Shown: positions 8,148-61,000 of the stretch, piece after piece
Layout: each line of letters starts with the position of its first letter
Position numbering within the stretch: position 1 is the first letter of the stretch
NCBI GenBank assembly: GCA_052327205.1
Contig: CM126212.1
Coordinates: forward strand, 17,298,001-17,362,000
Length of the DNA stretch: 64,000 nt
Direction: 5' to 3'
From: Somniosus microcephalus
Taxonomy: Eukaryota
Notes under the pieces: model-generated
What the model saw: only the letters and a program-made list of their open reading frames with translations
Databases searched by the model: none
What the model was told of the DNA's origin: nothing
Program-made: the position numbers and the translations under genes

Positions 8148-10625
8148 CATAGTAACATAGAGATAGGAACAGGAGTAGGCCATTCGGCCCTTCGAGCCTG
8201 CTCCGCCATTCAATGAGATCATGGCTGATCCTCGTCTGAGATCATAGCTGATCTTACCAGTTCAGTACCCCGTCCCCGCCTTTTCTCCGTAACCCTTAAT
8301 CCCCTTAGCCTTCAGAAATATATCCAATTCTCTCTTGAAAATATTTATTGAATTAGCCTTCACAGCCCTCTGTGGCAGGGAATTCCACAGGCTCACCACT
8401 CTTTGAGTGAAGAAATTCTTCCTCATCTCTGTTTTAAATGATTTGCCCGCTATTTTTAGACTGTGGCCCCTGGTTCTGTGCTCCCTGGCCATTGGAAACA
8501 TTCTCTCTGAATTCAGCCTGTCCAGGCCTGCCATAATTTTATATGTTTCGATGAGATCCCCTCTCAATCTTCTAAACTCCAGTGAGTACAAGCCCAAACT
8601 ATTTAATCTCTCTTCGTAGGTCATTCCCGCCATTCCAGGTATCAGCCTGGTGAATCGCCGTTGCACTCTTTCCATGGCAAGAACATCCTTCCGCAGATGG
8701 GGCGACCAAAACTGTACACAATACTCCAGATGCGGTCTCACCAGCACCTTGTACAGCTGTAGTAAGGTATCCCTATTCCTATACTCGAACCCCCTTGATA
8801 TGAAGGCCAACATACCATTTGCCTTCTTAATCGCCTGTTGCACCTGCATGCTCTCCTTCAGTGACTGGTGCACAAGAACACCCAGGTCCCTCTGCACTTC
8901 CCCATCTCCCAATCTATTGCCATTTAGATAATAATCTACCCTCCTGTTTTTACCCCCAAAGTGGATAACCTCGCATTTATCCACATTATAGTGCATCTGC
9001 CACGTATCCGCCCATTCCCCCAACCTGTCCAAATCGCACTGTAGCCTCCTGACATCCTCATCAGAGCCCACCCCTCCTCCTAGTTTAGTGTCGTCAGCGA
9101 ATTTGGAAATATTGCATCCAATTCCCTGATCCAGATCATTTATATATATTGTGAACAGCTGGGGTCCCAGGACAGATCCTTGCGGCACCCCGCTGGTCAC
9201 TGCCTGCCACTCTGAAAACGAGCCGTTTATTCCAACTCTCTGTTTTCTATCCGCCAGCCAGTTCTCTATCCACGTTAATACTTTGCCCCCAATCCCATGA
9301 GCCTTAATTTTGCATGACAATCTTTTGTGTGGAACCTTATCGAAGGCTTTCTGGAAGTCAAGGTACACCACATCCACTGGCTCTCCCCCATCTATTTTAC
9401 CAGTTACTTCCTCAAAAAATTCCAGCAGATTAGTCAAACACGATTTACCCTTTGTAAATCCATGTTGACTCTGTCCGATCCTTTCCCCATTTGTCAAGTG
9501 CTCCGCTATTTTATCCTTAATAATGGACTCTAGCATTTTGCCCACAACCGATGTAAGGCTTACTGGTCTATAATTCCCTGCTTTCTCTCTACCCCCCTTT
9601 TTAAATATTGGGGTAACATTAGCTACCCTCCAATCCACGGGTACTGTTCCCGAGTCAATGGAGTTCCGGAAGATGATCCTTAGAGCATCTGCTATCTCCA
9701 GGGCCACCTCCTTAAGTACCCTAGGATGTAGTTTATCAGGCCCCGGGGATTTGTCGGCCTTCAGTCCCCTCAACTTACCCAACACCATATCCCTAGAGAT
9801 ACTAATTTCTGTCAGCTCCTCCCTCTCATTAGTCCCTATGTTTGCCGATATTCCTGGGAGGTTATTTGTGTCCTCCTTTGTGAATACAGAACCAAAGTAT
9901 GAGTTTAATTGGTCTGCCATTTCCTTATTCTCCATTATATATTCTCCCGAATCGGACTGCAGGGGACCGACTTGGGATTTTACCAGTCTTTTCCTCCTGA
10001 TATACCGATAAAAGCTTTTGCAGTCTGTCTTTATTTTTGCTGCAAGTTTACTTTCGTATTCTATTTTCCCCTTCCTGATTAATCCCTTTGTCCTCTTCTG
10101 CTGTATCCTGTACTGCCCCCAATCTTCCGGTCTGGTGCTTTTTTTTGCCAGTTGATATGCCCTTTTTTTAAATTTTATGCTGTCCCTAATTTCCCTCGTT
10201 ATCCACGGTTGAGTCACCTTTTTAGGTTTATTTTTATGCCAAACCGGTATAAACATGTTCTGGAATTCTTCCATTCTATCTTTGAATGCTTGCCATTGTC
10301 TATCCACTGTCAATCCCCCCAGAAACACCACCCAATCAATCTTACCCAATTCCCGTCTCATACCCTCGTAATTCCCTTTATTTAAGTTCTGGACCTTAGT
10401 CTCTGATTCAATTTCCTCACTCTCCATCTCGACTGAGAGCTCGATCATATTATGATCGCTCTGACCCAAGGGGCCTCGTACAAGAAGATTGGTGATAAGT
10501 CCCTTCTCATTGCACAATACCCAGTCTAAAATGGCCTGATCTCGAGTCGGCTCCTCGACATATTGGTCCAGATAACCGTCCCGAAAACATTCCAGGAATT
10601 CCTCCTCCTCAGAATTTTTACTAAT
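8148..10625 (-). mobile_element. 5'-truncated young CR1 LINE
   Basis: Uninterrupted ORF2 remnant plus CR1 3' hairpin and (atagtaac) tail repeats at ~8148-8160. Confidence 0.92.
8262..10517 (-). CDS. CR1 ORF2, endonuclease C-terminus plus reverse transcriptase, N-truncated
   Basis: SDHN (APE), NYRPVSLTS, QHGF, LDFQKAFDKV, GVPQGS, FADD, RPHLEYC motifs; 751 codons with no stop. Confidence 0.9.
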   Translation of the reverse strand: MCNEKGLITNLLVRGPLGQSDHNMIELSVEMESEEIESETKVQNLNKGNYEGMRRELGKIDWVVFLGGLTVDRQWQAFKDRMEEFQNMFIPVWHKNKPKKVTQPWITREIRDSIKFKKRAYQLAKKSTRPEDWGQYRIQQKRTKGLIRKGKIEYESKLAAKIKTDCKSFYRYIRRKRLVKSQVGPLQSDSGEYIMENKEMADQLNSYFGSVFTKEDTNNLPGISANIGTNEREELTEISISRDMVLGKLRGLKADKSPGPDKLHPRVLKEVALEIADALRIIFRNSIDSGTVPVDWRVANVTPIFKKGGREKAGNYRPVSLTSVVGKMLESIIKDKIAEHLTNGERIGQSQHGFTKGKSCLTNLLEFFEEVTGKIDGGEPVDVVYLDFQKAFDKVPHKRLSCKIKAHGIGGKVLTWIENWLADRKQRVGINGSFSEWQAVTSGVPQGSVLGPQLFTIYINDLDQGIGCNISKFADDTKLGGGVGSDEDVRRLQCDLDRLGEWADTWQMHYNVDKCEVIHFGGKNRRVDYYLNGNRLGDGEVQRDLGVLVHQSLKESMQVQQAIKKANGMLAFISRGFEYRNRDTLLQLYKVLVRPHLEYCVQFWSPHLRKDVLAMERVQRRFTRLIPGMAGMTYEERLNSLGLYSLEFRRLRGDLIETYKIMAGLDRLNSERMFPMAREHRTRGHSLKIAGKSFKTEMRKNFFTQRVVSLWNSLPQRAVKANSINIFKRELDIFLKAKGIKGYGEKAGTGY

Positions 10626-11224
10626 TTGGGGTCCCGCACGGCCGGCTCACCAGCTTTTGAATGGAAAAATCGTGCGTGCGCGGAAACTCGAATGGGCCGT
10701 GGAGCCCCTTGAATGGGCTGTGCGTCCCCCCAAAAATTAAAAGGAACATTGCCTGATAGAGGTCTTTAAAATTATGAAGGGTTTCGATAGGGTAGACATA
10801 AAGAAGATGTTTCCACTAGTAGGGGAGTCCAAAACCAGGGGCCATAAATATAAGATGGTCACTAATAAATCCAATAAGGAATTCAGGGGCAACTTCATTA
10901 CCCGGAGAGTGGTGAGAATATGGAACTCGCTACCACATGGAGTACTTGAGGTGAATAGCACAGATGCCTTTAAGGGGAAGCTAGGTAAGCACATGAGGGA
11001 GAAAAGAATAGAAGGAGGCTCGTGTGGAGCACAAACACCGGCAGAGACCAGTGGGCCAAATGATCTGTTTTTGTGCTGTAAATTCTATGTAATTCTCTGT
11101 ATTTCACTCCCTGAGCAGCAGTGAGACTGGGAGAGGTGTGGTTAATGAAGGGGTTAATTGACCATGAATATATCAGTATTTTTTTAGTGTGCAGTTAGCT
11201 TTATAGTTCTTGAAAATCCTTCTT

Positions 11225-22817: not shown

Positions 22818-23406
22818 ACATAAGAACATAAAAACATAAGAAATGGGAGCAGGAGTCGGCCATTTGGCTCTTCGAGCCTGCTCCGCCATTCAATAAGATC
22901 ATGGCTGATCTTCTACCTTATCTCCACTTTCCTGCACTATCCCCATACCCCTTGATTCCCTTCATATTCAAAAATCTATCGATCTCTGTCTTGAATATAC
23001 TCAACGACTGAGCCTCCACAGCCCTCTGGGGTAGAGAATTCCAAAGATTCACCACCCTCTGAGTGAAGAAATTTCTCCTCATCTCAGTCCTAAATGACCG
23101 ACCCCTTATTCTGAGACTGTGACCCCTGGTTCTAGACTCCCCAGCCAGGGGAAACATCCTCTCTGCATCTGCCCTGTCAAGCCCTGTAAGAATCTTGTAT
23201 GTTTCAAAGAGATCACCTCTCATTCTTCTAAACTCCAGAGAATATAGGCCTAGTCTACTCAATCTCTCCTCATAGGACAATCCCCCCATCCCAGGAACCA
23301 GTCTGGCGAACCTTCGTTGCACTCCCTCTATGGCAAGTATATCCTTCCTTAGGTAAGGAGCACAAAACTGTACACAATACTCCAGGTGTGGCCTCACCAG
23401 GGCCCT
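22818..23406 (-). mobile_element. CR1 LINE 3' fragment
   Basis: Open 159-codon remnant RPHLEYC...GYGDSAGKW; (acataaga) tail repeats. Confidence 0.88.
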
Positions 23407-24136
23407 ACACCCAGCAGCCTAAAGCAGCGAGCATTATCAATGGGATTGAAAGGCTTCTTGCCTCATACACTTTGGCAGCCTGCAGACATTAAACCGTTTG
23501 TTGCTCAACACAGCAGCTATTGGTCCAGGTCAACAGAACAGAGATTCCTGTCTTTGACAGTCATTAAAAGAGTGTTGACATATAAAAAAAAATCTTTGAC
23601 ACACCTTTTGTTTGGGGGCGGGGGGAAGAGAACGGAGAGGAGCTAGAGACTAACTTTGTATCACCTTGGCCCAGTGGTTGAACTCTCACCTCTGACTGAG
23701 AAGGTCATGGGTTCAGTCTCATTCTAGGGATTTGAGCACATGGTCAGTCTTGACACTTTAGTGCAGTACTGAGGGATTGCTGCATTGCCGAAGGTGCAAT
23801 GGATGAGATGTTAAACTGAGGTCCTGCCTGTAGTGATCAATAACATGTCATTCTGTGGTGGACACTAGGTGGAGCTGTAGAGCTGTATATAGCTGTATGT
23901 ATAAGACTACACTACCCAGCTGTATGATATTAAGACTACATTACCCATGAGGCACTAGGCTACCCACAAGGCAGCAGTCAAGATGGAAGCCTCCACAGAT
24001 ACAGTACCTAGTCCACATGTGCTCAATAAAAGGTCTAGCAAAAGCTAGCTGTGTTCATAATAAGAATGTCTAGTTATTAATGAACATAACATGGTACCAG
24101 GGTGGTGAAGATCTGCTGAAAATTGTGAAAAGCGAC

Positions 24137-24962
24137 ATGGAGAATTTGAAGCCACCAGAGCGTTTGAATCTCGAGGGAAATGTCGACTACAATTGGCAGA
24201 TTTTTAAACAACAATTCGAACTCTACATTGCAGCCATCAGATTCGGTACGAAGCCAGATGCAAGGAAGATAGCGTTGCTGCTTACGGTTGCAGGCCCACA
24301 GGCGATAGAAGAATTTAATACATTTGTATTTAATCCAGTGGAGAACAGAGAAAAATTAGAAGATGTGCTAAAAAAATTTGATGCACATTGCTCTCCCAAA
24401 AAGAATGAGACCTATGAAAGATACATCTTCTGTTCTCGGACACAGCAGCAAAATGAGACTTTTGATAGCTTTATAACTGATCTGAAACTGAAAGCACAGA
24501 CATGTAATTTCTCTGAGCTGAAATCATCCATGATTCGTGACCAGATTGTGTTTGGTATTCATGATAAAAAAGTCAGGGAACGTCTGTTGAGAGAAACCGA
24601 ACTAAATTTGGAAAATGCGGTGAAAGTATGCCAAGCCAGCGAGCTAGCTCGAAATCAATGATGATGCGATTGTAATGAGTGATAATGCTGCTGTCGGTGA
24701 TGTGTCCTACAAGGGGAAGAAACGTGGGCAGAACAGAAATGAAAAGCAATCGGAGGATGACATTTTTAATTGTAAACGCTGTGGTTACAAACACCAGTTA
24801 AGACAATGCCCAGCATTTGGAAAAATGTGCACAAAGTGTAATGGAAAGAATCACTTTGCCAAACAATGCTTTTCAAAAGTAAAAACGATGAAAGGGCAAC
24901 GAGTTAATGTGATTGAGGACACTGATTTAAGTGAGACATTTTTTGTAGGAATGGTGTCGTGA
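24137..24962 (+). pseudogene. Gypsy gag, frameshifted, with two CCHC zinc knuckles
   Basis: NWQIFKQQFELY, KNETYERYIF, MIRDQIVFGI, RERLLRE; CKRCGYKH..QC and CTKCNGKNHFAKQC; frame break near 24660. Confidence 0.85.
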
Positions 24963-24987
24963 CGATATCAAAAAAGATACAGAAAAT

Positions 24988-25908
24988 GTGCAGCCCTCAG
25001 AAATAGACAATGCTGAACATAAAGTTAATGCAGTAAAAGAGGACAAATGGATGATCCCACTGCAGATAAATGGAGCATTAGTTACATTGAAACTGGACAC
25101 TGGGGCAAAAGCAAACTTAATCAGTATGAGTGACATTAACAATATGAAAGAAAAGCCCAAAATACAGAAAAAGTCAGTACTACTGAAGAGCTATAATGGA
25201 CAGAAAATTGATAGCTTAGGTGTATGCAGACTTAAAGTGACATTCAAAGACAAAGTGCATCATCTCATGTTTTCTGTTGTGGCTGAAAGACTTGATTCGA
25301 TACTAGGTGACAAAGCTTGTGAGGACTTAGAACTGGTCAAGAGAGTCTACCGTATAAACTGTGCCATAAGCAGACCAGATGACTCAGGTGATGAAGCAGA
25401 GAGCCCATCAAGGATGAAAAGGCCAAAGGGTATCCATGTCTTCAAAAAGCCTAGTTTCTCCAAGAAGAAAGAAAAAGACTTTAAGGTCAAAGAAAAGCAC
25501 AAAGAGGAAAAACACAAGGAGAAAAAGTCCAAAGATATAACCGCAGCAGATGTTGTTAAGCAGTGGAAAGAGAAAAAGAAAAAGAAGAAGCCTGCACCAG
25601 AGCAGGAAGCAGTTCCGGTGGATACTCCTTCTTCCCTCAGGCCAATCTTTGGTGTTCCCTTAGCCGAGGCTGCTGAGAGGACTATGCTGTATGATGGGAT
25701 CCAGCTGCCAGCAGTTTTTCGAGAGTGCATTGACTACATTGAGAGTTATGGCATGAAGAGTGAAGGAAACACTGAAACCCTCTCCAAGCAAAGATCGCAA
25801 GGAGACCTCAATCTATACAAGAGCAGATTGATGACAATGCCGCAACTGCATCTTGTCATTCACCGCCAGAACAATCTCATGAAGACACATCAGACTTACC
25901 CATGTTGA
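24988..25908 (+). CDS. Aspartic protease fused in frame to a captured RALBP1 segment
   Basis: LKLDTGA active site and SILG..AC..L.LVKRV protease end, followed with no stop by the RALBP1 peptide. Confidence 0.85.
   Translation: MQPSEIDNAEHKVNAVKEDKWMIPLQINGALVTLKLDTGAKANLISMSDINNMKEKPKIQKKSVLLKSYNGQKIDSLGVCRLKVTFKDKVHHLMFSVVAERLDSILGDKACEDLELVKRVYRINCAISRPDDSGDEAESPSRMKRPKGIHVFKKPSFSKKKEKDFKVKEKHKEEKHKEKKSKDITAADVVKQWKEKKKKKKPAPEQEAVPVDTPSSLRPIFGVPLAEAAERTMLYDGIQLPAVFRECIDYIESYGMKSEGNTETLSKQRSQGDLNLYKSRLMTMPQLHLVIHRQNNLMKTHQTYPC
25384..25767 (+). pseudogene. RALBP1: Transduced fragment of RalA-binding protein 1 (RLIP76): Lys-rich region and start of RhoGAP domain
   Basis: SGDEAESPSRMKRPKGIHVFKKPSFSKKKEKDFK..KSKDITAADVVKQWKEKKKKKKP..PIFGVPL..ERTMLYDGIQLPAVFRECIDYIESYGMKSEG closely matches vertebrate RALBP1 as recalled (SGDEAESPSKMKRSKGIHVFKKPSFSKKKEKDFK...GMKCEGIYRVSG). 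Confidence 0.93.
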
Positions 25909-26656
25909 GAAGATCCACACGTGAAGTAAAAGAGCCTGATAGACTTAATCTTTGAGTACAATGTAAAGCTTTGAAAATGTGTTGACTGTTTTGAAAATGT
26001 TAATGTTTATAGAGCACTAACAAAAGTGTTACTGATATTATCTTTATTGTTTTCTTGAAAGTTGATTGATATTCATTTTGTTAAACCTCAAAGAAAGGAG
26101 GATGTAGTGATCAATAACATGTCATTCTGTGGTGGACACTAGGTGGAGCCGTAGAGCTGTATATAGCTGTATGTATAAGACTACACTACCCAACTGTATG
26201 ATATTAAGACTACATTACCCATGAGGCACTAGGTTACCCACAAGGCAGCAGTCAAGATGGAAGCCTCCACAGATACAGTACCTAGTCCACATGTGCTCAA
26301 TAAAAGGTCTAGCAAAAGCTAGCTGTGTTCATAATAAGAATGTCTATTTATTAATGAACATAAGATTGCCTGCTTGTAAAAGAAGAGCAGGGGACCTCTT
26401 GTGTCTGGGCCAGCATTTAACCCAGAATCAACACCACCAAATACAGTTAGCTAGTTATTTATCCCACTGCTGTCTGTGGGACCTTGCTGTGCGCAAACTG
26501 GCTGCCACGTTTGCCTACAAAACAACTGCAGAACTAATTAACTGGCTGTAAAGTGCCTTTGGGACCTCTCGATGGTGTGAAAGGTGCTTTTTTTCCTCAT
26601 CATGATCCCACTCAATGATGTGTTCCAATGTGATTCCCATTATTTCATTGTTTAAT

Positions 26657-35560: not shown

Positions 35561-37827
35561 CAAATCAAATCAAATCAAATCAACTTTTATTGTCATTGTT
35601 AGTGCACAAGTGCAGTACAACGAAATGTAGGCTTGCGGCTCCCGAGAGTGTACATTTAGATTAAGACATTTAAACATTCAACATACATTTGGCTTGTAAT
35701 ATATTAACATAAACATAACCATAATAAAGTGCATTGGCAGATGTGCAGGCTTTAGAGTTTATTTGTGGAGTTCAGTAGGATGACAGCCCTGGGAAAGAAG
35801 CTGTTCCTAAATCTGGTCGTACGGGTGCGAATGCATCTGTAGCGTCTCCCAGATGGCAGGAGGGCGAACAGACTGTGGCTGGGGTGGGTAGGGTCTTTGA
35901 TGATGGACCGTGACCTCCGTAAACAGCGTTTCTGGTATATGTGCTCTATGGTCGGTAGCCGGGTGCCGGTAATGCGTTGGGCAGTTTTGACTACTCGCTG
36001 CAGGGCTTTCCGGTCATAGTAGCTGCAGCTGCCATACCATACTGTGATACAGTTTGTCAGGATGCTCTCTATTGTGCAGCGGTAAAAGTTAGAGAGGATC
36101 AGGGGTGACAGGTTACATCCCTTCAGCCTCCTTAGGAAATATAGGCGCTGCTGGTCCTTCTTCACCAGAGAGGAGGTATTGAGGGACCAGGAGAGGTCTT
36201 CCGTGATGTGGACTCCGAGGAACTTAAAGCTGTCCACCCTTTCCACCACAGCCCCATTGATGTGGATGGGGGTGTGACTTCCGCCTTTAGACTTCCTGAA
36301 GTCCACAATGATTTCTTTGGTTTTCTTGATGTTAAGGGCCAGGTTGTTATCGGCGCACCACTTCACGAGATGCTGGACCTCCTCCCTGTAGGCTGACTCA
36401 TCGTTGTTGGTGATCTGACCTACTACCGTGGTATCATCCGCAAACTTGATGATGGTGTTGGAACCATGAACAGCCACACAGTCGTGGGTGAAGAGGGAGT
36501 AGAGGAGGGGGCTCAGCACACATCCTTGTGGGGCCCCCGTGTTCAGGGTCAGGGTGGGGGAGGTGTGGTTACCTAATTTGACAGACTGGGGTCTGTTTGT
36601 TAGGAAGTCCAGGGTCCAGTTGCAGAGGGAAGTGTTCAGGCCAAGAGTTTGGAGTTTGGTGGCCAGCTTGTTGGGGACGATAGTGTTGAATGCTGAGCTG
36701 TAGTCTATGAACAGCATTCTGATGTAGGTCTCCTTACCATCTAAGTGATTCAGTGCCGAGTGTAGAGCAGTTGTGATTGCATCCTCCGTTGATCTGTTTG
36801 CACGATAGGCAAACTGGTGTTGGTCAAGAGAGGCGGGAACACTGGCTTTGATGTGAGACAGGACCAGTCTCTCGAAACACTTCATTATGATGGGTGTGAG
36901 TGCGACAGGTCGATAGTCGTTCAGGCACGTCACAGCCGTTTGTTTTGGCACAGGAATAATGGTAGCGGTCTTGAAGCATGTAGGGACTACTGCCTGGGCC
37001 AATGACAGATTGAAGATGGCGGTGAAGACATCAGCCAGCTGATCAGCACATTCCTTGAGTACCCGTCCAGGGATGCTATCCGGTCCAGCAGCTTTTCGTG
37101 TGTTCACTCTGCGTAGAACACCCCTTACATCGGAGGTCAACAGAGTGAGCACCTGGTCTTCCGGGGGTGGCAAGGCTTTGGTAGCCGGCTCCCTGTTGTC
37201 CCTGTCGAAGCGAGCGTAGAAGTTGTTAAGCTCCTCCGGAAGGGAGGCATCGCTAACCGGGGGGCTGGTGTTTTTGCCCTTGTAGTCAGTGATGGACTGG
37301 ATGCCTTGCCACATGCGCCGGGGGTCCGAGTTGTTGTGGAAATGATCCTCTATCCGCAGTGTCCGTTTCCTTTTGGCAGTCCTGACCCCCTTTTTTAGGT
37401 TGGTCCTAGCTGCACTGTAAGCCGCCGCGTCGCCAGATTTAAATGCTGCGTTGCGTGCTTTCAGCAGTGAGCGGACCTCTCCGTTCATCCAGGGTTTCTG
37501 GTTGGGGTATGTCCTGATATTTTTATGGGTCGTGACGACCTCGACGCAGCTGTTAATGTAGAATAGCACTGTGGATGCGTATTCCTCGATGTCATTATGG
37601 GCAAACATGCCCCAATCAGTGCGTTCGAAGCAATCCTGAAGCTCCGATACTGCCCCCTCTGGCCATACTTTCACTGCTCTCACTGATGTTCTCCCTCTTT
37701 TGATGAGCGGTTTGTATGCCGGGGCTAGAAACAGGGAGAGGTGGTCAGACTTCCCAAGGCGGGGGCAGGGAATGGCCTTATAAGCGTCTACAATGCTTGT
37801 GTAGACTTGGTCCAGTGTGTTCTCCCC
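35561..37827 (-). mobile_element. 5'-truncated Rex1/Babar-type LINE
   Basis: (ATTTG)n tail at 35561-35583; probable TSD tctcat (35555-35560, 37828-37833); uninterrupted ORF. Confidence 0.85.
35752..37827 (-). CDS. Rex1-type endonuclease C-terminus plus reverse transcriptase, N-truncated
   Basis: [78 protein letters not shown]; about 690 codons without a stop. Confidence 0.9.
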
Positions 37828-38024
37828 TCTCATTTCCATTCCATTTCAAATCTCTCCCCATTTTCATTTCCATTGACTTCCATTGATGATTGTTCAAAGT
37901 CAAAATTACCCCCAATGTGTCGGGACCGATTTAAAAAAAGTATTGATAACTAGAGGTAAATATAAGGGATACAGCACAGACTATATATAAAGCAAAAATG
38001 GGTGTTGCTGGGGACTTTCATTGG

Positions 38025-39462: not shown

Positions 39463-42400
39463 TGTAGTGTATGTACTTTGCAGAAGGAACGATATTCTGC
39501 AGCCCCTGTATACTGCAGTACCAGTAGTGACCACCCCTGTATATAAGCCTGTGGAATAACTTTGCATAGTAGTTCCAGTTTTGTCTCCACTCAGTAAACA
39601 CCTGTTGTAACCAACTCCTGCAGTCCGTGTCTCAATTACACACGGACATAATACTGGCAACGAGCAGATCCAAACTTACCGACAGTTCTGCACCACCTCA
39701 TGGGGATCCATCCCTGAAGCAAAATTGTTAGAGGTCGAGGCCAGAAGGAAGAAAGAAAAAAAAAACAAACAGAAGAAACGGGTGTCGACCGTGGGCAACC
39801 GCCTCTGATTCATCGGATTTGAAGATTTGCAGGAGAGGCTGTCGAGAGCGGGGCTTGGTTATCCTGTCTATGGTGTTCCAGCTAATCGGGCTGGTGGCAG
39901 GTAGTACACTGATCCTTCCTGGGCTGCGGCGGGCTAGAGCTCGATCGGGTGGCTTTTCAACGGGGCCGAGCAGCGTTGTCGGGAAGAGGAGAGAGAGAGA
40001 GAGGGTGGAGCACACAGGGCGCGGCCGGTGCTACGAAGCCGGGCAGCGTACAGACCCGAGAAGAGGGAGGAAAGTGTCCCGTAGGGTTTGCCCTGACGAC
40101 GGGAAAATAAAAGAAAGTAGAAGCGCAGAAAGCCGCGAGGAGCTGCAGTTTGCCACGGGGACCGCGGAGAGCGGCGTTAGCAGCAGCGCGGGGGGGGGGA
40201 AGTGCGCGAAGACCATAGGGCATCGCCATCAAGGCATAAAAACGCCAGCAACAGCGCTAGCAGCAGCGGAGAAGACAGAAAGCGCGGGAGGCGCCATCTT
40301 AATCCAACGGGGAAGAAGGCAAAGCGCGGGAGGCGCCAATTTGTTCAATCGGGGAAGAAGGCAAAGCGCGGGAGGCGCCATCTTAGATTTCCAAGATGCC
40401 GAAGACTGGCAATATCACTGCCTTCGATAATGCAATAGAAGACTGGACCACGTGTGTGGAAAGAGTCGAAGTATATTGCAAGGCAAACGAAGTAGCCGAT
40501 GAGAAAAAGGCATCGGTACTACTAAACTTAATGGGCGCAGGAATGTACGGCCTATTGCGGAACCTGATCACTCCAGCCAAACCGATGGCGAAGAGTTTTA
40601 ACGAAATTGTTGATATCCTATAGGAACACCTAAATCCTACAACGCTGCTGATAGCAGAAAAATTTAAATTCCACAAGAGAAATCAGCATAAAGATGAGAG
40701 CAATGCTGATTACCTTACGGAACTACGCAAGCTATCGAGGCACTGCCAGTTCGGAGCAGGACTGGCAGATACCCTATGGGACAAATTTGTCTGTGGACTC
40801 CTGAGTGAAGGAACCCAGAAGAGGTTACTCTCAGAGAAAGAGCTGACGCTAGATAAGGCTTTCAGCATGGCAGTATCGTACGAAGCAGCAGCAAGGGGAG
40901 CTGCGGAAATACAGCAAAAGCCACAGGAATACGGCACCCATGAAATGACACGGGAATTTGAAAAATGTTATCGCTGCGGCAGAACAACCCATGACCAGAA
41001 GGACTGCTGGTCCAAGGACAAAATATGCAGGCAATGCGGAAAGATGGGACACATTGCACGAGTTTGCAGGTCTGGGAAGAAGACTAACGACAACAAAAAC
41101 GCTACTAAGGAACAGTACAGGAAAGTAAACAAGATGACGGACAGTAGTTCCGAAGACCAGAAGAGCGATAGTGAATCCGGGAACAAGAGACTAAGCTGTC
41201 TCAAACTTCACAACGTAATCGCAAAAGAGGATCACCAAACCATTTGGGTCACCCTCACGATAGCAGGGTCCCAAGTCAAAATGGAATTGGATACAGGATC
41301 AGCCCTGACCGTCATGAATCGACGAGACTACGAGCGGCTATTCTCACACATACCCTTGAAAGAGACATCCATTGTCTTGAAGACGTATACGGGGCAGAAA
41401 GTATACCCCAGAGGGAAAATAAGGGTGCCTGTCGAATACAACGGCAAGGAAATACAGAAATTGTATCTCTACATACTGCAAGATGGTGGACCACCGTTAT
41501 TGGGACGTGAATGGATCAGAAAGATAAGTTTAGACTGGCACTCCATTCAGGCACTGACTGTGGCTGGTAAAAAGGATGACGACATCACACCTGGATGATT
41601 GTCAAAAATCTTAGCTAACGCTAAAGAGGTATTTCAACAAGAACTGGGAACTCTTAAAGGCGTAACCGCCTCGATAAAAATAGAAGAGAATGCAATTCCC
41701 AAGTTTTTCAAAGCAAGACCAGTACCGTACGCAATTCGCCCAGCCGTCGAGGCAGAGCTGGAGAATCTGGAGAATGCAGGCGTGTTATCTAAGGTAGACT
41801 GGAGCGAGTGGGCGACACCCATCGTTCCTGTCATGAAAAAAATGTTAAACAATAAGTCTGAGGAGCCAAGGAAGGTTCGCATCTGTGGGGACTTCAAGGT
41901 GATGGTGAACCCAGTCCTTCGCACAGTACAGTATCCTCTCCCGAGGATAGAAGATATTTTCGCCTCACTATCTGGAGGGAAGCGTTTTACAAAAATTGAC
42001 CTAGCACAAGCATATTTGCAGATGGAGGTTGAAGAATCCTCTAGGAAGTATCTCACGATAAACACTCACAAAGGTCTTTACCAGTATAATCGACTGGTAT
42101 TCGGAGTAGCATCAGCTCCGGCGATATGGCAAAGAGCGATGGAACAAGTCCTGCAAGGGATTCCGGGGACTCAGTGTTACTTGGACGACATCCTAGTGAC
42201 AGGTGAAAATGACAGTGAACACCTTGCCAACCTAGAGCAGGTGCTCACTAGACTAAGAGAACACGGGCTACGAGCCAATCGCCCCAAGTGCGAGTTTTTT
42301 AAGAAACAGATATCGTATTGTGGCCCCGTGATTGATGAAGAGGGGTTACACAAGTCTCCTGACAAAATTGAAGCGGTAGTTAAGGCTCCAGCGCCTGAAA

Positions 42401-44633
42401 ATGTGTCACAACTGAGGTCATTCCTCGGATTGGTGAATTACTACCATAAGTTTTTGCCGAATTTGTCCACAATTCTGCGCCCACTGAACGCCCTACTACA
42501 AACTGGAGTAGCATGGAAATGGAGCGATGAATATAAGCGGGCCTTTCAGAAGAGTAAAGACCTAATCACTTCAAGAGAAGTATTGGCTCACTACAACCCA
42601 TCACTACCGATAAGACTGGCGTGTGATACGGCATTGGAGCGGTACTGTCACATAAATTCCTTGATGGTTCAGAGAGGCCGATAGCTTTTACGTCACGCTC
42701 GTTAACTTCAGCCGAGCGTAACTACGCCCACATTGACAGAGAGGCCCTCAGCCTGGTGTGGGGGGTGAAGAAGTTCAATCACTACCTGCACGGTCAGAAA
42801 TTTACTCTACTAACTGATCATCAACCTCTCGTCTCCATTTTCAACCCTCAGAAGGACATCCCGATAATGACAGCACAACGGCTACAGAGGTGGTCCCTTT
42901 TCCTAGGGGCACACCAATATGACATCGAGTACAAAGGAACTAAACAGCATGGGAATGCTGATGGATTGTCACGCCTACCGTTGCCGACGGTGGAAGAAGC
43001 ACCTGCAGTGGATCCTGTGGAGATATTCCACTCGACCATAGTCGAATGTCTACCTGTGACGAATGCAAACATAGAAAAGGGAACACGAAATGACCCGACA
43101 CTCTCCAGGGTCTATGATTTAGCGGTGAAGGGATGGCCAGCACATGGCGAACCACTGTTGCCAGCATTCTCGCCGAGAAGAGAACAGCTGTCAGTGTGCA
43201 GAGGAACCTTGATGTGTGGATCCAGAGTAGTAATTCCACCCAAATTGAAGGATAGAGTGCTCAATGAGCTTCATGAGGGTCATCTGGGAGGGGTAAAAAT
43301 GAAGAACTTAGCCAGAGCCTTTGTGTGGTGGCCGGGAATCGATAGAGAAATCGAAGAGATGACCAAGAGCTGTACAGGATGCCAGAAGGTCCAAAACGCC
43401 CCACCACAAGCCCCTCTACATCCATGGGAGTGGCCCTCATCTCCATGGCAAAGGGCGCACATTTATTTTGCTGGTCCATTTATGGACTCGATGTTTTTAA
43501 TTGCGGTGGATGCACATTCAAAGTGGCCAGAGGTAATAAAAATGTCCTCAACCACCACAGAAAAAACTATCGCAGTCTTACGAACCATATTCGCCAGAAA
43601 TGGGCTGCCTGAACAGATTTGCTCCGACAATGGACCACAGTTTGTGTCTGAAGAGTTCCGGAGGTTCTTAAAGAACAATGGTGTTAAGCATTACACCTCC
43701 GCCCCATATCATCCAGCCACCAATGGATTGGCTGAGAGGTTCGTTCAAACATTCAAGAAGGCTATCAAGGCAATGTGTAATGAAGACATACCCCTACAAC
43801 ACAAGGTGGATAACTTCTTGTTTGCCTACCGGAATGCGACACATGCGGTTACCAACCAAACTCCAGCCATGATGTTCTTCAATCGAAGACTACGATGCCG
43901 CTTGGATTTGGTTAAGCCAAACATCAGAAGAGATGTGGAGAACAGGCAGTTTCAGAATATGAATGAAAGGCCGACCAGGAATTTTAAGATAGGTCAACCA
44001 GTTTTGGCCCGGGACTACCGCACAGAGAAATGGCAGCCAGGAATGATCTGCACACGGCAAGGACCTCTAATGTATACCGTGGATGTTGGAGAGAGCATTG
44101 TAAGACGCCATGCTGACCAGATTCTAGAGTCACTGGAAAACGTCAAATCCACACCACGATCCGATACACCTGGTGATGAAACCGAAGTGCCAATTGCATC
44201 TACCTCAGAATCGGTGATATTGGAAGCAGATGAACCAAACAACGACGTTGATCCCGAATCAACTTTGCCAGAAGAACCTGATACCCCAAAGAGGCGTTAT
44301 CCAGACAGAATCAGGAAGCCTCCTCAAAGACTGAACTTATAATTGCTTAACTTCAGCTAATGTATATAGCAACTGTAATTGTAAATATGTTATTTAATTA
44401 TTAATCGAATGTTATGTACTGTTTAGCTAAAAGGGGAGGAATTGTAGTGTATGTACTTTGCAGAAGGAACTATATTCTGCAGCCCCTGTATATTGCAGTA
44501 CCAGTAGTGACCACCCCTGTATATAAGCCTGTGGAGTAACTTTGCATAGTAGTTCCAGTTTTGTCTCCACTCAGTAAACACCTGTTGTAACCAACTCCTG
44601 CAGTCCGTGTCTCAATTACACACGGACATAATA
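39463..44633 (+). mobile_element. Full-length Ty3/Gypsy (Mag-type) LTR retrotransposon 1, disabled
   Basis: 191-bp LTRs 39463-39653 and 44443-44633 (3 differences by eye); TSD acctc; PBS tggcaacgag (tRNA-Ser-like); PPT aaaaggggagga. Confidence 0.95.
40396..44342 (+). pseudogene. gag-pol (gag, CCHC x2, PR, RT, RNaseH, IN) with stops and a frameshift
   Basis: LDTGS, YLDD, HEGH..C..C, SDNG, AERF motifs; stops at 40621 and 41596; frameshift near 42625. Confidence 0.93.
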
Positions 44634-46862: not shown

Positions 46863-49800
46863 TGTAGTGTCCGTGTGTAGATAAAGACACTGAAGACAGG
46901 AGTTGGTTCATAGGTATTTACTAAGCAAGTCTGGGGGGGGGGTTTCTAAAGGATATACACAATACACAGGCTTATATAGCCCAAGTGGCAATTACTGGCA
47001 TTACGCACACCTGGGGCTCTTAAAGGCACATACACCATAATTGCTCCCCTTCTAGCTAACTAGTACATCATATTTTAAGTAATTATTAATTACATGTTAT
47101 ATGCAAAATAATATACATTGCTGTATTAATTAATTATAAGTTAGTCTCTCAGGAGGCTTCCTGACTCGGTCCGGATAACGCCTCGGGGGTGTAGTAGTTT
47201 CTGGTGGTGTAGTAGGTTCTTCTGGCAAGGCTGATTCGGCTTGAAGGCCAGTGTCGGGTTCATCGGGCTCCAGTATCACCGGATCGGAGGTAGATATGGG
47301 TATCTCTACTTCATCGTTAGATGTATAGAGTGGTGGTGTAGGTTGTCCCTTTTCGGATGACTTGATGATTTGGTCAGCATGGCGCCTTATTATGCTGTCT
47401 CCGATGTCCACGGTATACATCAGTGGTCCTAATCGTGTGCAGATAGTTCCAGGCTGCCATTTCTCGGTACGGTAGTCCCGGGCCAAAACCGGTTGGCCTA
47501 TCTGGAAGGCCCTAGTTGGCCTTTCATTCATGCCCTGAAACTGCCGGTTCTCCACGTCCCTTCGGATGTTGGGCTTGACCAAATCCAGCCGGCATCTTAG
47601 GTTTCTATTGTAGAACATCATGGCGGGAGTTTGGTTAGTAACCATATGCGTTGCATTCCTATATGCAAATAAGAAGTTATCCACCTTGTGCTGAAGTTTT
47701 ATGTCTTCATTACCCATGGCCTTGATGGCCTTCTTGAAGGTCTGGACAAACCTTTCAGCCAATCCATTGGTGGCGGGATGGTATGGGGCGGACGTGTAGT
47801 GCTTTACCCCATTGTTCTTTAAGAACTTTCTGAATTCTTCGGACACAAATTGCGGTCCATTATCAGAACATATCTGCTCCGGCAGCCCATTCCTGGCAAA
47901 TATGGTCCTTAATACTGTGATGGTTTTTTCCGTGGTGGTGGAGGACATCTTTATTACCTCCGGCCACTTGGAGTGTGCATCAACTGCGATTAAGAACATT
48001 GAGTCCAAAAATGGACCAGCAAAGTCGATGTGCACCCTTTGCCAGGGAGATGAGGGCCACTCCCATGGATGTAGAGGGGCCTGTGGCGGAGCATTTTGGA
48101 CCTTCTGGCATCCTAGGCAGCTCTTGGTCATGTCTTCGATGTCTCCATTGATACCTGGCCACCATACAAACGCCCTAGCTAGGTTCTTCATTTTCACTCC
48201 ACCCAGATGTCCCTCGTGAAGCTCCTTTAGCACTTTATCCTGGAGTTTGGGTGGAATCACCACTCTGGATCCACACATCAAGGTTCCTCGGCACACTGAC
48301 AGCTGTTCTCTTCTTTGCGAGAATGCCGGCAACAGTGGTTCGCCATGTGCTGGCCATCCCTTCACTGTTAAATCGTAGACCCGTGAGAGAGTAGGGTCAT
48401 TTCTTGTCTCCCTTTCAATGGCAGAATTTGTCACCGGTAGACATTCCACTATGGTAGAGTGGAATATTTCTACTGGGTCTACTGTAGGTGCCTCTTCTAT
48501 CGTTGGCAACGGTAGGCGTGATAAACAGTCAGCATTCCCATGCTGTTTTGACCCTTTGTATTCAATGTTGTATTGGTGTGCCCCTAGAAAAAGGGACCAC
48601 CTCTGTAGTCTTTGTGCCGTCATAATGGGGACACCTTTTTTAGGGTTGAATATGGAGATGAGGGGTTGATGGTCAGTCAGCAAGGTAAATTTTTGTCCGT
48701 GTAGGTAATGGTTGAATTTCTTCACTCCCCATACCAGGCTGAGTGCTTCCCTGTCTATCTGGGCATAGTTACGCTCAGCTGAGTTCAATGAGCGTGACGC
48801 AAAAGCTATCGGCCGTTCCGAGCCATCAGGGAATCTATGGGACAATACCGCTCCTATGCCGTAAGGGGATGCATCGCACGCCAGTCTGATTGGTAGTGAT
48901 GGGTTGTAATGAGCCAAAATTTTCTCGGATGTGATTAAGTCTTTACATTTATGGAAGGCACGTTTACAGTCTTCGTTCCATTTCCAAATCACTCCTGTCT
49001 GTAGAAGATCATTAAGAGGGTGTAGAATAGTTGATAAGTTCGGTAAAAATTTATGATAGTAATTTATTAATCCCAGGAATGACCTTAATTGTGAAACATT
49101 TTCAGGTGCTGGGGCTTTTATAACTGCTTCAATTTTTTCAGGTGACTTATGCAACCCTTCCTTATTAATTATGTGGCCACAATATGATATCTGATTTTGG
49201 AAAAATTCGCACTTGTGGCGATTTGCTCGTAGGCCCCGTCCTTTCAGCCTAGTGAGCACCTGCTCCAAATTGGCAAGGTGCTCGTTGTCGTTTTCTCCTG
49301 TTATAAGGATGTCGTCTAGGTAGCATTGAGTCCCCGGAATCCCTTGCAGGACTTGCTCCATAGCTCTTTGCCAGATAGCTGGAGCTGATGCTATTCCAAA
49401 AACCAGTCGATTGTACTGGTACAGGCCTTTGTGTGTGTTTATTGTGAGATACTTTTTAGAGGTCTCCTCAACCTCCATCTGTAGATATGCCTGTGCCAAG
49501 TCAATTTTTGTGAAACGTTTCCCTCCGGATAGTGAGGCGAAAATATCTTCTATCCTCGGAAGAGGATACTGTACCGTGTGAAGGACCGGGTTTACAGTCA
49601 CCTTAAAGTCTCCACAGATGCGAATTTTTTTCTGTTCCTCAGAGTTATTTTTCAATGTTTTTTTCATGACTGGAACGATGGGTGTTGCCCATTCGCTCCA
49701 ATCTATTTTGGATAATATGCCTGCCTTTTCCAAATTCTTCAGCTCTGCCTCGACTGCCGGACGTATTGCGTATGGCACCGGTCTTGCCTTAAAAAATTTT

Positions 49801-51764
49801 GGAATTGCTGTATCTTCCACTTTTATTGAGGCGGTGATGCCTTTCAAGGTTCCTAGTTTCTCTTGAAACACTTCTTTGGCGTTGGCCAAGATGTCTTTTA
49901 ATCGTTCAGGTATGATGTCATCATTGTTTTTTTCCTTACTGGTCACCGTCAGTGCCTGAATGGAGTGCCAGTCTAAACGTATCTTCCTTATCCATTCACG
50001 TCCCAACAACGGTGGACCACCATCTTGTAGAATGTATAAATACAACTTTTGTATTTCTTTGCCGTTGTATACCACAGGCACCCTTATTTTTCCTTTGGGG
50101 TAGACTTTCTGCCCCGTATATGTTTTTAAGATAATGGATGTGTCTTTTAGAGCTATATGCGAAAATAGCCTCTCGTAATCTCGTCGATTTATTACGGTTA
50201 GAGCTGATCCTGTATCTAGCTCCATTTTAACTGGGGACCCTGCTATTGTGAGGGTAACCCAAATGGTTTGGTAATCCTCTTTGGCAAGTACATTATGTAA
50301 TTTGAGACAGCTTAGTCTCTTGTTTCCGGAGTCGCTATCGCTATTCTGGTCTTCGGAGCTATTGTCCGTCATCATTTGTACCTTCCTGTACTTTTTTTTA
50401 TTGATTTTTTGTTTTCTGTCAGTGGATTTATTTTGTCCAGATTGGCATACCCGTGCAATGTGTCCAATCTTACCACATTGCCTGCATGCTTTGCCCTTGA
50501 ACCAGCAGTCCCTCTGGTTATGGGTGGATCTGCCACAGCGATAACATCTTCCGAACTCCTGTGTCATTTTATGGGTGCCGAAGTCCTGTGTCTCTTGTTG
50601 TATCTCTGCAGCTCCTTTTGCTGCTGCTTCGTATGATACAGCCATACTGAAAGCTTTGTCCAACGTTAAATCTTTTTCAGAAAGCAGTCTTTTTTGTGTT
50701 CCTTCACTTAAGAGACCGCAAACAAATTTGTCTCGAAGATAATCCAATAGTCCTGCTCCGAATTGGCAGTACTTTGATAGCTTTCTTAATTCGGTTAGGT
50801 AATCAGCGTTACTTTCATTCTTGTGTTGATTTCTCTTGAAGAACTTGAATCGTTCCGCTATCAGCAGCGGTGTTGGGTTTAAATGCTCCTGCAGGGTATC
50901 AACAATTTCTTTAAAAGTCTTGTCCTTTGGTTTGGCTGGAGTGATTAAATTTCGTAACAGCCCGTATGTCTTCGCGCCCATTAAGTTCAGAAGTACTGAA
51001 GCTTTTTTTTCATCTGTTATTCCATTTGCAGTGCAATAAACCTCTACTCTTTCCACGTATGCGGTCCAATCTTCTATTTCGCCATCAAAAGCCTCAATAT
51101 TACCAGATTTAGGCATTTCAGAAAAGATATGGCGCTTCCCGCACTTTTTTTTCTCTCTCTGTAGCAACGATATGGCGTTTCCCGCGCTTTCCCACCGCTG
51201 CTACCGATAACAACGCTGTTTACTGTGGTTTCAGTTTATTCACTGTTGGAGACTCGTTCCCGACGGAGGTCTAAACGCTGACCTGCTTGCCGCGCCGGCC
51301 GTCTCTCGAGTGCACCCTCCCAGTCCGTTATTGCTTGCCTCCGATTTCGCTGCCTGTCTCAGCTGTAGAGCCCGCCGCTGGAGCTCCAGCCTGACGCCCA
51401 GGAAGGATTAGCGCAGTACCTGTCACCAGCTTGGCCAGTTTCTCTTACTTCCTTGAGTCTTCTGGACGCTGGAGGAATCGATGTCCTTGAGGTGCTGCCG
51501 AATTGCAGGTAAGTCCGTTTCCACTTCGTCGCCACTGTAGTGTCCGTGTGTAGATAAAGACACTGAAGACAGGAGTTGGTTCATAGGTATTTACTAAGCA
51601 AGTCTGGGGGGGGTTTCTAAAGGATATACACAATACACAGGCTTATATAGCCCAAGTGGCAATTACTGGCATTACGCACACCTGGGGCTCTTAAAGGCAC
51701 ATACACCATAATTGCTCTTAAAGGCACATACACCATAATTGCTCTTAAAGGCACATACACCACA
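46863..51764 (-). mobile_element. Full-length Ty3/Gypsy (Mag-type) LTR retrotransposon 2, coding-intact
   Basis: LTRs 51536-51764 (5') and 46863-47039 (3'); TSD atttc; PBS tggcgacgaagtgg (tRNA-Ser-like); PPT agaaggggag. Confidence 0.96.
47130..51116 (-). CDS. Intact single-ORF gag-pol polyprotein
   Basis: ATG at 51116 (MPKSG..., equivalent to the start of element 1); two CCHC knuckles, LDTGS, YLDD, RNaseH CDAS/REAL/TDH, integrase HHCC and IDF/SDN/AER triad; no stops. Confidence 0.95.
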   Translation of the reverse strand: MPKSGNIEAFDGEIEDWTAYVERVEVYCTANGITDEKKASVLLNLMGAKTYGLLRNLITPAKPKDKTFKEIVDTLQEHLNPTPLLIAERFKFFKRNQHKNESNADYLTELRKLSKYCQFGAGLLDYLRDKFVCGLLSEGTQKRLLSEKDLTLDKAFSMAVSYEAAAKGAAEIQQETQDFGTHKMTQEFGRCYRCGRSTHNQRDCWFKGKACRQCGKIGHIARVCQSGQNKSTDRKQKINKKKYRKVQMMTDNSSEDQNSDSDSGNKRLSCLKLHNVLAKEDYQTIWVTLTIAGSPVKMELDTGSALTVINRRDYERLFSHIALKDTSIILKTYTGQKVYPKGKIRVPVVYNGKEIQKLYLYILQDGGPPLLGREWIRKIRLDWHSIQALTVTSKEKNNDDIIPERLKDILANAKEVFQEKLGTLKGITASIKVEDTAIPKFFKARPVPYAIRPAVEAELKNLEKAGILSKIDWSEWATPIVPVMKKTLKNNSEEQKKIRICGDFKVTVNPVLHTVQYPLPRIEDIFASLSGGKRFTKIDLAQAYLQMEVEETSKKYLTINTHKGLYQYNRLVFGIASAPAIWQRAMEQVLQGIPGTQCYLDDILITGENDNEHLANLEQVLTRLKGRGLRANRHKCEFFQNQISYCGHIINKEGLHKSPEKIEAVIKAPAPENVSQLRSFLGLINYYHKFLPNLSTILHPLNDLLQTGVIWKWNEDCKRAFHKCKDLITSEKILAHYNPSLPIRLACDASPYGIGAVLSHRFPDGSERPIAFASRSLNSAERNYAQIDREALSLVWGVKKFNHYLHGQKFTLLTDHQPLISIFNPKKGVPIMTAQRLQRWSLFLGAHQYNIEYKGSKQHGNADCLSRLPLPTIEEAPTVDPVEIFHSTIVECLPVTNSAIERETRNDPTLSRVYDLTVKGWPAHGEPLLPAFSQRREQLSVCRGTLMCGSRVVIPPKLQDKVLKELHEGHLGGVKMKNLARAFVWWPGINGDIEDMTKSCLGCQKVQNAPPQAPLHPWEWPSSPWQRVHIDFAGPFLDSMFLIAVDAHSKWPEVIKMSSTTTEKTITVLRTIFARNGLPEQICSDNGPQFVSEEFRKFLKNNGVKHYTSAPYHPATNGLAERFVQTFKKAIKAMGNEDIKLQHKVDNFLFAYRNATHMVTNQTPAMMFYNRNLRCRLDLVKPNIRRDVENRQFQGMNERPTRAFQIGQPVLARDYRTEKWQPGTICTRLGPLMYTVDIGDSIIRRHADQIIKSSEKGQPTPPLYTSNDEVEIPISTSDPVILEPDEPDTGLQAESALPEEPTTPPETTTPPRRYPDRVRKPPERLTYN

Positions 51765-55786: not shown

Positions 55787-57155
55787 AACATAGAAACATA
55801 GAAACATAGAAGATAGGAGCAGGAGTAGGCCATCCGGCCCTTCGAGCCTGCTCCGCCATTCAATGAGATCATGGCTGATCATCCAAATTCAGTACCCTGT
55901 CTCTGCCTTCTCCCCATATCCCTTGATCCCTTTAGCCTTAAGAAATATATCCAACTCTTTTTTGAATATATTTAATGAACTGGCCTCCACCGCCCTCTGT
56001 GGCAGAGAATTCCACAGGTTCACCACTCTCTGGGTGAAGAAATTCCTCCTCATTTCAGTCCTAAATGGCTTACCCCTTATCCTTAGACTATGACCCCTGG
56101 TTCTGGACTCCCCGGCCATCAGAAACATCCTTCCTGCATCTAGTCTGTCCAGGCCTGACAGAATTTTATAGGTTTCGATGAGATCCCCTCTCAATCTTCT
56201 AAACTCCAGTGAGTATAAGCCCAATCGACACAATCTCTCCTCATACGTCATTCCTGCCATCCCAGGTATCAGCCTGGTGAATCTTCGCTGCACTCCTTCC
56301 ATGGCAAGAACGTCCCTCCTCAGGTAAGGCGACCAAAACTGCACACAATACTCAAGGTGCGGTCTCACCAAGGCCCTGTACAACTGTAGCAAGACATCCT
56401 TGTTCCTGTACTCGAACCCTCTTGCTACGAAGGCCAACATACCATTTGCCTTCTTAACCGCCTGCTGCACCTGCATGCTTACCTTCAGCGGCTGGTGCAC
56501 AAGAACACCCAGGTCTCTTTGCACTTCCCCTTCGCCCAATCTATTGCCATTCAAATAATAATCTGCCTTCCTGTTTTTGCCACCAAAGTGGATAACCTCA
56601 CATTTATCCACATTATAGTGCATTTGCCATGTTTCTGCCCAATCACCCAATCTGTCCAAATCGTACTGGAGTTTCACGACATCCTCCTCACAGCTTACCC
56701 TCCCACCCAGCTTTGTGCCGTCTGCAAATTTGGAGATATTACATCCAATTCCCTCGTCCAGATCATTAATACATATTGTGAATAGCTGGGGACCTAGGAC
56801 CGATCCTTGCGGTACCCCACTAGTCACTGCCTGCCACTCGGAAAACGACCCGTTTATTCCAATTCTTTGCTTTCTGTCCGCCAACCAGTTCTCTATCCAA
56901 GTCAATACCTTGCCCCCAATCCCATGTGCCTTAATTTTGCACGCTAATCTCTTATGTGGGACCTTATCGAAAGCCTTCTGAAAGTCCAAATACACCACAT
57001 CCACTGGTTCTCCCTTATCTATTTTACCAGTTACATCCTCAAAAAATTCCAGTAGATTAGTCAAGCATGATTTACCTTTTGTAAATCCATGTTGACTTTG
57101 TCCGATCCTGTCACTGCTTACCAAGTGCTCTGCTATTACATCTTTTATAATAGAT
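55787..57155 (-). mobile_element. 5'-truncated CR1 LINE
   Basis: 411-codon RT remnant (55889-57124) with FADD changed to FADG; (aaacatag)n tail. Confidence 0.92.
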
Positions 57156-57455
57156 AATAGATTCTAGCATCTTCTAGAATGTCCCGCATTATGAGCCTTT
57201 CCGCCAGCATTTATTGAGCATGAACATTTACTGAGGAATACTTTTGTAACAATTTAGCAAGATGTTATAGCTCCGTAATCTGTGGAAGCCTAACCTGATT
57301 GTAGTCATCTGTTTGGACAGTTCCTATTTGAGTAGGTAATCAATTACTCAGCCAAAAACATAATTATCTGGTTGGATATTTTGACCTAGAAATTGGTTGA
57401 CACCGAGCCACTTTTCTTGGCATAAATCGGGCACCTAAGCATCCAATATGGTGAG

Positions 57456-60881: not shown

Positions 60882-61000
60882 CTTGGCAGGGGGATGGGGT
60901 ACAGAGTGGAGCTATAGTAGGGGGTGATTTACAGCCAAATACAGAGGGAAAAACAAGTCAGCTGGGAAGGCAAAGCAAATATGTGAAGGCAAAAGAGAAT

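Follow-up and report, generated by a model that had tools for sequence, protein, structure and literature searches.

The window analysed here is a 64,000-nucleotide (nt) stretch of the Somniosus microcephalus genome (assembly GCA_052327205.1, contig CM126212.1, positions 17,298,001 to 17,362,000). At 23829-26365 it holds a single degenerate member of a non-autonomous Ty3/Gypsy family of retrotransposons with long terminal repeats (LTRs), in which most of pol is replaced by two pieces of the host gene RALBP1 and which numbers about 2,860 copies in the 6.45-Gb genome. The chimera was probably born once, by capture of RALBP1 messenger RNA (mRNA), and then amplified in trans by helper elements, with the RALBP1 cargo travelling as a passenger. 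An earlier note, made from the letters of the window alone, had described in this interval an LTR, a primer-binding site (PBS), gag, protease, an insert, a pol tail, a polypurine tract (PPT) and a second LTR within a target-site duplication, and all of these parts were located.

The RALBP1 cargo and its donor exons

Measured against relatives that bear a reverse transcriptase (RT), the chimera has about 0.43 kb of cargo in place of about 2.5 kb of pol. The cargo consists of two sense-oriented RALBP1 pieces, to which the second coding exon contributes 384 nt and the last exon 55 nt. Piece 1 (25383-25766, plus strand) comes from the interior of the second coding exon, which is 462 nt long and on contig C7 is bordered by AG and GT; the piece is free of stops and is read in the frame of the protease. 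It matches the RALBP1 structure PDB 2mbg with an E value of 4.5e-19, and its best genuine BLASTP matches are ray and shark RALBP1 at 82-85%, the top row having been set aside because its own source flags it as contamination; these matches point to a cartilaginous fish as host. The in-frame, stop-free RALBP1 insert of the earlier note therefore stands, but the exon match begins and ends one letter before the 25384-25767 given there. Piece 1 corresponds to residues 93-230 of shark RALBP1, with a KEEKH repeat 30 nt shorter than that of the host, and its 128 residues include 31 lysines and arginines and 22 aspartates and glutamates. In human RLIP76 it overlaps the disordered polybasic region and the region that binds AP2, Epsin and R-Ras; the available text of PMC8124665 describes the polybasic region as disordered, possibly membrane-binding and part of that binding region.

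Alignment confirmed that piece 1 ends at EG, three residues short of the arginine finger, which is Arg232 of RALBP1 according to the same available text (PMC8124665). With regard to the RhoGAP Pfam profile, only positions 1-20 of 148 are covered, and both the arginine finger and the whole GTPase-activating protein (GAP) fold are absent. As had been proposed, the captured piece is thus predicted to be without GAP activity.

Piece 2 (25760-25814, plus strand) comes from the last exon, whose final coding stretch it matches at 98% over 55 nt, and it lies in a different frame from piece 1. Homology to the element picks up again at about 25813, not at 25767, and the integrase C-terminus does not directly follow piece 1 as had been thought. 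Furthermore, the integrase tail remnant (25813-25955, plus strand), with its end LRRSTREVKEPDRLNL*, lies outside the fusion frame, which terminates at 25906-25908. The three parts that follow the protease occupy three frames, piece 1 that of the protease, the RALBP1 C-terminus the second and the integrase tail the third, and the following piece stays in frame at only one of the three junctions.

Comparison with relatives and donor reveals microhomology at every junction. The two pieces overlap at the 7-nt sequence GTGAAGG (25760-25766), while the 5' switch shares 2-5 exact letters with the five relatives compared, and the 3' switch shares 2, adjoined by an extra 6-nt match. At equal base use, the chance of seven or more shared letters is 0.0004. 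These junctions support the proposed capture of RALBP1 RNA by template switching, with three switches rather than the two first suggested, given the two separate pieces. In such a single birth event, the virus-like particle of a Ty3/Gypsy element would have co-packaged a RALBP1 mRNA. During minus-strand synthesis, RT would have quit the element RNA within the integrase tail and switched to the last RALBP1 exon for 55 nt. At the 7-nt repeat it would then have moved about 1.2 kb upstream along that mRNA and read about 400 nt of the second coding exon before rejoining the element directly behind the protease. The resulting element would have been without RT, RNase H and the integrase core, with LTRs, PBS, PPT, gag and protease still in place.

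The resident RALBP1 is a single ten-exon gene on contig C7, and the element in the window is on C11. With whale-shark RALBP1 as the tblastn query, nine exon blocks were found across 41 kb, two of them extending into introns; a second intron-containing donor was not found, one of the nine RALBP1 matches having splice signals. In the gene the donor exons are separated by 38.5 kb, in the mRNA by about 411 codons. Capture at the DNA level, in which a break or gap in an element was repaired from the RALBP1 locus (or from complementary DNA) before the product spread, would fit the fact that neither piece crosses an intron. Moreover, one chimeric copy (L144, G000:C7 ~32357800-32361200) is found on the RALBP1 strand, 28 kb upstream of the donor exon, with about 0.04 such copies expected by chance. 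This route is nevertheless very unlikely, as the two exonic pieces come from sites 38.5 kb apart and are both sense, in gene order and free of intron letters. L144, which is split by about 0.75 kb of other sequence, shows both junctions together with a target duplication of its own and LTRs that differ at 1 of 285 positions, which marks it as a re-insertion and rules it out as the founder of the family. Capture from mRNA is the route that we favour.

Copy number, insertions and age of the family

Copies were counted by pattern, with 28-mers across the junctions, at most 3 mismatches, the whole 6.45-Gb assembly and reversed-pattern controls. The 5' junction gave 2,854 matches, the inner jump 2,863 and the controls 0; a similarity search with the insert had returned 202 candidates, a lower bound that these counts supersede. 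The protease-to-RT junction of the non-chimeric relatives gave 6,752 matches, so that chimeras make up 30% of the two junction classes, that is, of protease-bearing copies.

For a structural sample, 40 copies were taken in list order from the exact junction matches on contig C1, at 3.6 kb each, one already examined copy being skipped. Two LTRs were present in 36 of them. The 5-bp target duplication was exact in 30 of these 36 and had at most one mismatch in 33, and every one was different. The genome-wide junction count that the earlier note had proposed thus reveals thousands of copies, with independent insertions in the sample. An assembly chimera, or an exon of the resident RALBP1 gene, has next to no probability: thousands of copies share identical junctions between different flanks, the resident ten-exon gene is on another contig, and the bins of the element are all covered by contigs under two other organism labels, and by RNA reads as well.

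LTR divergence among the 36 two-LTR copies has a median of 1.5% (range 0-8%). With regard to LTR ends, 34 of 54 copies have TG...CA and 16 have TG...GA in both LTRs, and 2 have one of each, the window copy included. The non-canonical TG...GA end is heritable, marking a sub-lineage that has inserted with perfect 5-bp duplications. This bears on the age of the window copy, which had been called fairly recent from about 5 LTR differences in 263 positions. The five mismatches are there, but the CA/GA end difference is a family variant that need not post-date the insertion, and in any case the LTR divergence of this copy dates that insertion alone.

Five copies on C3 (at about 253.8-256.0 Mb and 227.3 Mb; L041, L047-L049 and L054) have a common right flank GTAAG and rare variants in common, and appear to have arisen from a single insertion by segmental duplication. 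Cargo-free deletion forms, in which the protease end is joined to the integrase tail at a 9-nt repeat, were also seen (L086, L091, L093 and G000:C41:14249857).

Helper relatives and a proposed exchange between classes

The 20 non-chimeric relatives examined came from a pattern (204 matches) that misses the commonest form, and are not a random sample. The RT-bearing relatives are about 4.5-4.9 kb long, have the same PBS as the chimeras and 5-bp duplications, and match Ty3 Gag-Pol best among solved structures (E 2.6e-79). Their Pfam domains follow the Gypsy pol order, protease, RT, RNase H and integrase, of which the chimera retains the protease and the integrase tail only. The chimera family nonetheless has the LTR pair, tRNA PBS, PPT and target duplication of the Ty3/Gypsy type (4-6 bp). 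The relatives leave no space for env at 4.5-4.9 kb, the integrase tail being followed by PPT and LTR. We take the Mag-like clade of Gypsy, with a tRNA-Leu primer, a 5-bp duplication and one gag-pol frame, to be a candidate for their placement.

Mobilisation by a helper, as the earlier note had it, is supported by these RT-bearing relatives with LTRs of the same type and by thousands of insertions with different target duplications. Nine two-LTR relatives have a median LTR divergence of 2.2%, which, next to the 1.5% of the chimeras, suggests that both classes were active in overlapping periods. LTR similarity to the chimeras reaches 92-93% in 2 of the 20 sampled relatives, and CA- and GA-ended LTRs are found in both classes. 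A gag-protease tree was built from 39 chimeras and 20 relatives, with 3 short rows omitted. Two of its relatives are sister to the chimeras and one is nested among them, and well-supported branches force two label changes. Additionally, the density of variants present in at least five copies is 3-4 times higher in gag and protease than in cargo and tail. From the mixing in the tree, the LTR ends common to both classes and the denser gag-protease variants we infer that the cargo arose once and that its flanks were replaced through recombination inside shared particles. Full-length relatives would accordingly have copied and integrated the chimera to its present numbers, swapping gag and LTR parts with it in those particles.

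A second RALBP1-carrying family and the host exon

Eight other loci hold RALBP1 sequence that extends past the junction, and five of these eight lie between a different LTR pair. This second family (L062-L077; for example G000:C10:164735000-164744500, C7:228570000-228579500 and C35:98696000-98705500) has LTR ends TGTGAGCT...TGATCGCA, 4-bp duplications and a different PBS, and neither gag nor pol was seen in five copies. Its cargo includes spliced RALBP1 exon junctions, with 8 matches genome-wide, and its interior is a mosaic of host mRNAs that varies among copies, in which Pfam recognises phosphoglycerate kinase, a vWA domain, a chromodomain and CCCAP. Other pieces are presumably Tudor-, DCN1-, PRPF6- and UBR7-like, and two cargo pieces received no Pfam name. 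The second family can thus be described as an exon-shuffling cassette. Derivation of the chimera family from it is ruled out, as different parts of the KEEKH repeat are missing and the LTRs are unrelated. The presence of RALBP1 in two unrelated LTR families suggests that RALBP1 mRNA entered the particles of both.

Five sites separate the chimera family from the resident exon, one of them family-specific (K to R). At the other four (L061, exon positions 272, 308, 378 and 425) the second family differs from the host as well, both families having AT where the host has GC. Three of the four are silent, and the fourth is an I-to-L difference at a residue that is I in five other aligned vertebrates. 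Three silent changes, for about 77 silent sites, are above the 0.8% spread among copies. The differences could stem from an earlier capture, from a different allele or from biased gene conversion. Escape of the host exon from Piwi-interacting RNAs (piRNAs) through the four changes was also considered and is unlikely: over 384 nt there are four mismatches, every one AT-to-GC, for which biased gene conversion or an allele difference is an equally good explanation.

Expression and occurrence elsewhere

Expression was assessed in two raw RNA runs of one study with one species label, in which host and chimeric reads are pooled. The element recruited 6,412 and 11,326 reads, with all 30 bins covered in both runs, and in one run first mates are mostly minus-strand, as sense transcripts give in common stranded libraries. 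The 3' cargo end (25810) is covered by 287 and 179 reads, host included, against 672 and at least 335 adjacent loose ends of the helper type. This is close to the genomic ratio of 0.3 and indicates no excess expression in the two runs. In contigs of two other organisms the cargo and both junction bins are deeply covered, at a depth not convertible to copy number, which hints that the family is older than the species or common to close relatives.

Coding capacity and selection on the cargo

Selection was examined in a variant census of 97 copies (101 loci minus 4 duplicates; 60 picked by likeness to the window copy), with non-CpG singletons as the neutral control and variants in at least three copies as the test set. 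Nonsynonymous (N) counts, which include stops in gag, were compared with synonymous (S) ones. Among shared variants there is an N deficit in gag (singletons 227 N and 73 S, shared 45 and 29, p=0.013) and in protease (98 and 29, shared 11 and 14, p=0.0015). In the cargo the proportions are the same (100 and 36, shared 11 and 4, p=1). Purifying selection is thus evident in gag and protease, with none seen in the cargo at low power. Three substitutions in piece 1 (S26F, K29N and A54T), at residues invariant across six RALBP1 sequences, have each reached 6-8 copies. The cargo is most likely a neutral passenger, and unbroken copies would translate it as a basic, disordered tail of Gag-protease.

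Several observations weigh against this account. The two alternative frames of piece 1 contain 4 and 10 stops, so that the sole open frame is the one used. Each piece is contained within one exon, the joint between them is not a splice junction, and the check for an exon-exon junction that the earlier note had proposed found none within the cargo; the case for an RNA template is accordingly drawn from the 38.5-kb genomic distance. Cargo-free forms number 4, against about 2,860 with cargo. The cargo test comprises 15 shared variants, some of them repeat-alignment artefacts or C3 segmental duplicates (five of the 19 listed cargo variant sites fall in a hard-to-align 15-nt repeat), and is compatible with moderate constraint. 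Finally, the signal in gag and protease may come from helpers and does not by itself establish a need of the chimera for its own Gag.

That the cargo is useful to the element, as protein or as RNA, is a possibility to which we give modest weight. One version, which we hold unlikely, keeps the same origin and makes the peptide a polybasic disordered tail of Gag-protease that binds anionic membranes, endocytic adaptors or RNA, with better assembly, traffic or nuclear access. The fusion is in frame, and frames of at least 600 codons are kept in 7 of the 36 unselected two-LTR copies and in 10 of the 30 best-matching ones; a single frame of 632-634 codons, gag through cargo, is found in 8 of the 30 best matches to the window copy. 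Length variants of the KEEKH repeat are multiples of 15 nt in 69 of the 72 copies scored, the cargo-free forms have remained few, and piece 1 comes from a region that the available text of PMC8124665 characterises as disordered, polybasic, possibly membrane-binding and adaptor-binding. These points are offset by the lack of depletion of amino-acid changes among shared variants and by the propagation of non-conservative changes at invariant residues. Furthermore, one joining in three would be in frame by chance, slippage by 15 nt cannot shift the frame, and in-frame open reading frames (ORFs) occur in 14 of 17 young Drosophila cases in the available text of Tan 2016 (PMC5131818).

A gain at the RNA level, again with the same origin, appears slightly less likely still. 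Conserved host sequence would serve as piRNA camouflage, or the cargo as a spacer, packaging or stability signal. The second capture of RALBP1 by an unrelated LTR family suggests ready packaging of this mRNA, camouflage has been proposed for maize elements in the available part of PMC13317346, and the cargo varies less (0.8%) than any other part of the element (1.5-2.7%). Low variation is, however, equally expected from a single cargo origin with exchange of flanks, and the cargo-end reads indicate no excess expression. Selection of the RALBP1 piece as an accessory, be it a basic membrane- or RNA-binding tail or piRNA camouflage, would explain the 30% share of chimeras against four cargo-free copies, and we regard it as doubtful; a founder effect from few strong source copies accounts for the numbers equally well. 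If the accessory reading were true, 2,860 near-identical host-exon copies would pit silencing of the element against expression of host RALBP1, and the host gene has itself diverged from the captured sequence at four sites, one invariant in other vertebrates.

Relation to known systems

The origin proposed here places the family among LTR-mediated retrocopies, a capture mechanism already published (Tan 2016, PMC5131818). The available text of that paper reports microsimilarity at switch points with a median of 6 bp in animals, and secondary retroposition at few copies. The chimera likewise has host mRNA within LTR-element flanks, switch-point microsimilarity and secondary retroposition with the same switch points, and resembles the published cases, as far as that text describes them, in its partial mRNA replacing internal ORFs, sense orientation and in-frame ORF. 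It differs from them in one jump inside the same mRNA, in the absence of an exon-exon junction and in scale, theirs being single loci or few copies (one to five for maize Bs1) and the chimera numbering about 2,860, which is unusual. Pipelines for retrocopies that demand an exon-exon junction, such as that in the available text of PMC13320880, would miss the family.

Maize Bs1 and gene-carrying plant LTR elements are, on the available text of PMC13317346, similarly non-autonomous with host gene pieces in one frame; the chimera differs in its vertebrate host, its far higher copy number and a cargo on which selection is not evident.

Plant TR-GAG elements keep LTRs, PBS, PPT, gag and protease, have lost RT, RNase H and integrase and are mobilised in trans. 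The chimera has the same retained and lost parts and mode of mobilisation, but belongs to an animal Gypsy lineage and has host mRNA in place of the lost part. Acutely transforming retroviruses have helper-dependent genomes with a signalling-gene fragment fused behind gag. The parallel with oncogene transduction drawn in the earlier note holds for this layout, a Gag-protease-host fusion frame, but on present evidence not for function, as no selection on the cargo is seen. Moreover, the chimera is a germ-line retrotransposon without env, and its fragment is without the catalytic and Ral-binding parts.

A RALBP1-carrying retrotransposon family, or such a copy number, was not found in a literature search that left most subscription journals and Repbase outside its reach. 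The family suggests that LTR-mediated capture in a vertebrate can yield a major repeat family and not just a stray retrocopy. By arithmetic it totals about 7 Mb of the genome, with more than 1 Mb of near-identical host coding sequence. It offers an unusually large natural sample for asking whether captured cargo is neutral, benefits the element or, by cross-silencing, harms the donor gene; so far this has been studied mainly in plants. A caution for annotation also follows: repeat masking would hide a RALBP1 exon, and read-based estimates of RALBP1 expression and copy number would be inflated.

The copy in the window

All features of the window copy are on the plus strand. The left target-site duplication CTGCC (23824-23828) and the right TTGCC (26366-26370), identified by comparing LTRs and flanks, are alike at 4 of 5 positions. 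The 5' LTR (23829-24091) and the 3' LTR (26103-26365), 263 nt each, differ by 5 mismatches over their length. The first ends TG...CA (CA at 24090-24091) and the second TG...GA (GA at 26364-26365), mixed ends as expected of a two-template recombinant. The PPT lies at 26090-26102.

The PBS (24092-24109) is complementary to the 3' end of a tRNA-Leu(TAA) that the genome itself encodes, and is one base shorter than the perfect form found in some sister copies. There are 136 pattern matches to tRNA-Leu(TAA) in the genome, and both loci examined were called tRNA-Leu(taa); a tRNA gene was not found within the window. A large tRNA gene cluster on C4, at about 0.7-1.9 Mb, holds most of the first 100 listed tRNA-Leu(TAA) 3' ends.

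The gag region, with zinc knuckles and the gag-protease linker (24137-25053), is followed by the aspartyl protease, with its DTGA motif, and a C-terminal linker (25054-25382). The protease matches PF13975 and PF13650 at or above cut-off and the zinc knuckle falls below it, and no Pfam family is recognised in the N-terminal part of gag in the window copy or its relatives. Two short frame-breaking deletions near 24655 and 24958, absent from most sister copies, disrupt gag, so that this copy cannot make the Gag-protease-RALBP1 fusion. It is a dead insertion, and there are no further copies of the chimera within the window.

Other features of the window

The element interrupts an older dispersed repeat (23658-26588), its two flanks aligning with consecutive portions of four further copies within the window; we assume this repeat to be SINE-like. 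Two other gag-pol-like elements, at 40624-44339 (plus strand) and 47133-51200 (minus strand), have no DNA-level kinship to the chimera family, and the latter has one stop-free stretch of 1,356 codons. Long open frames are also present at 8265-10646, 22918-23418, 35755-37845 and 55892-57163 on the minus strand and at 59940-63811 on the plus strand, and all five resemble what we take to be LINE ORFs of the CR1/L2 type.

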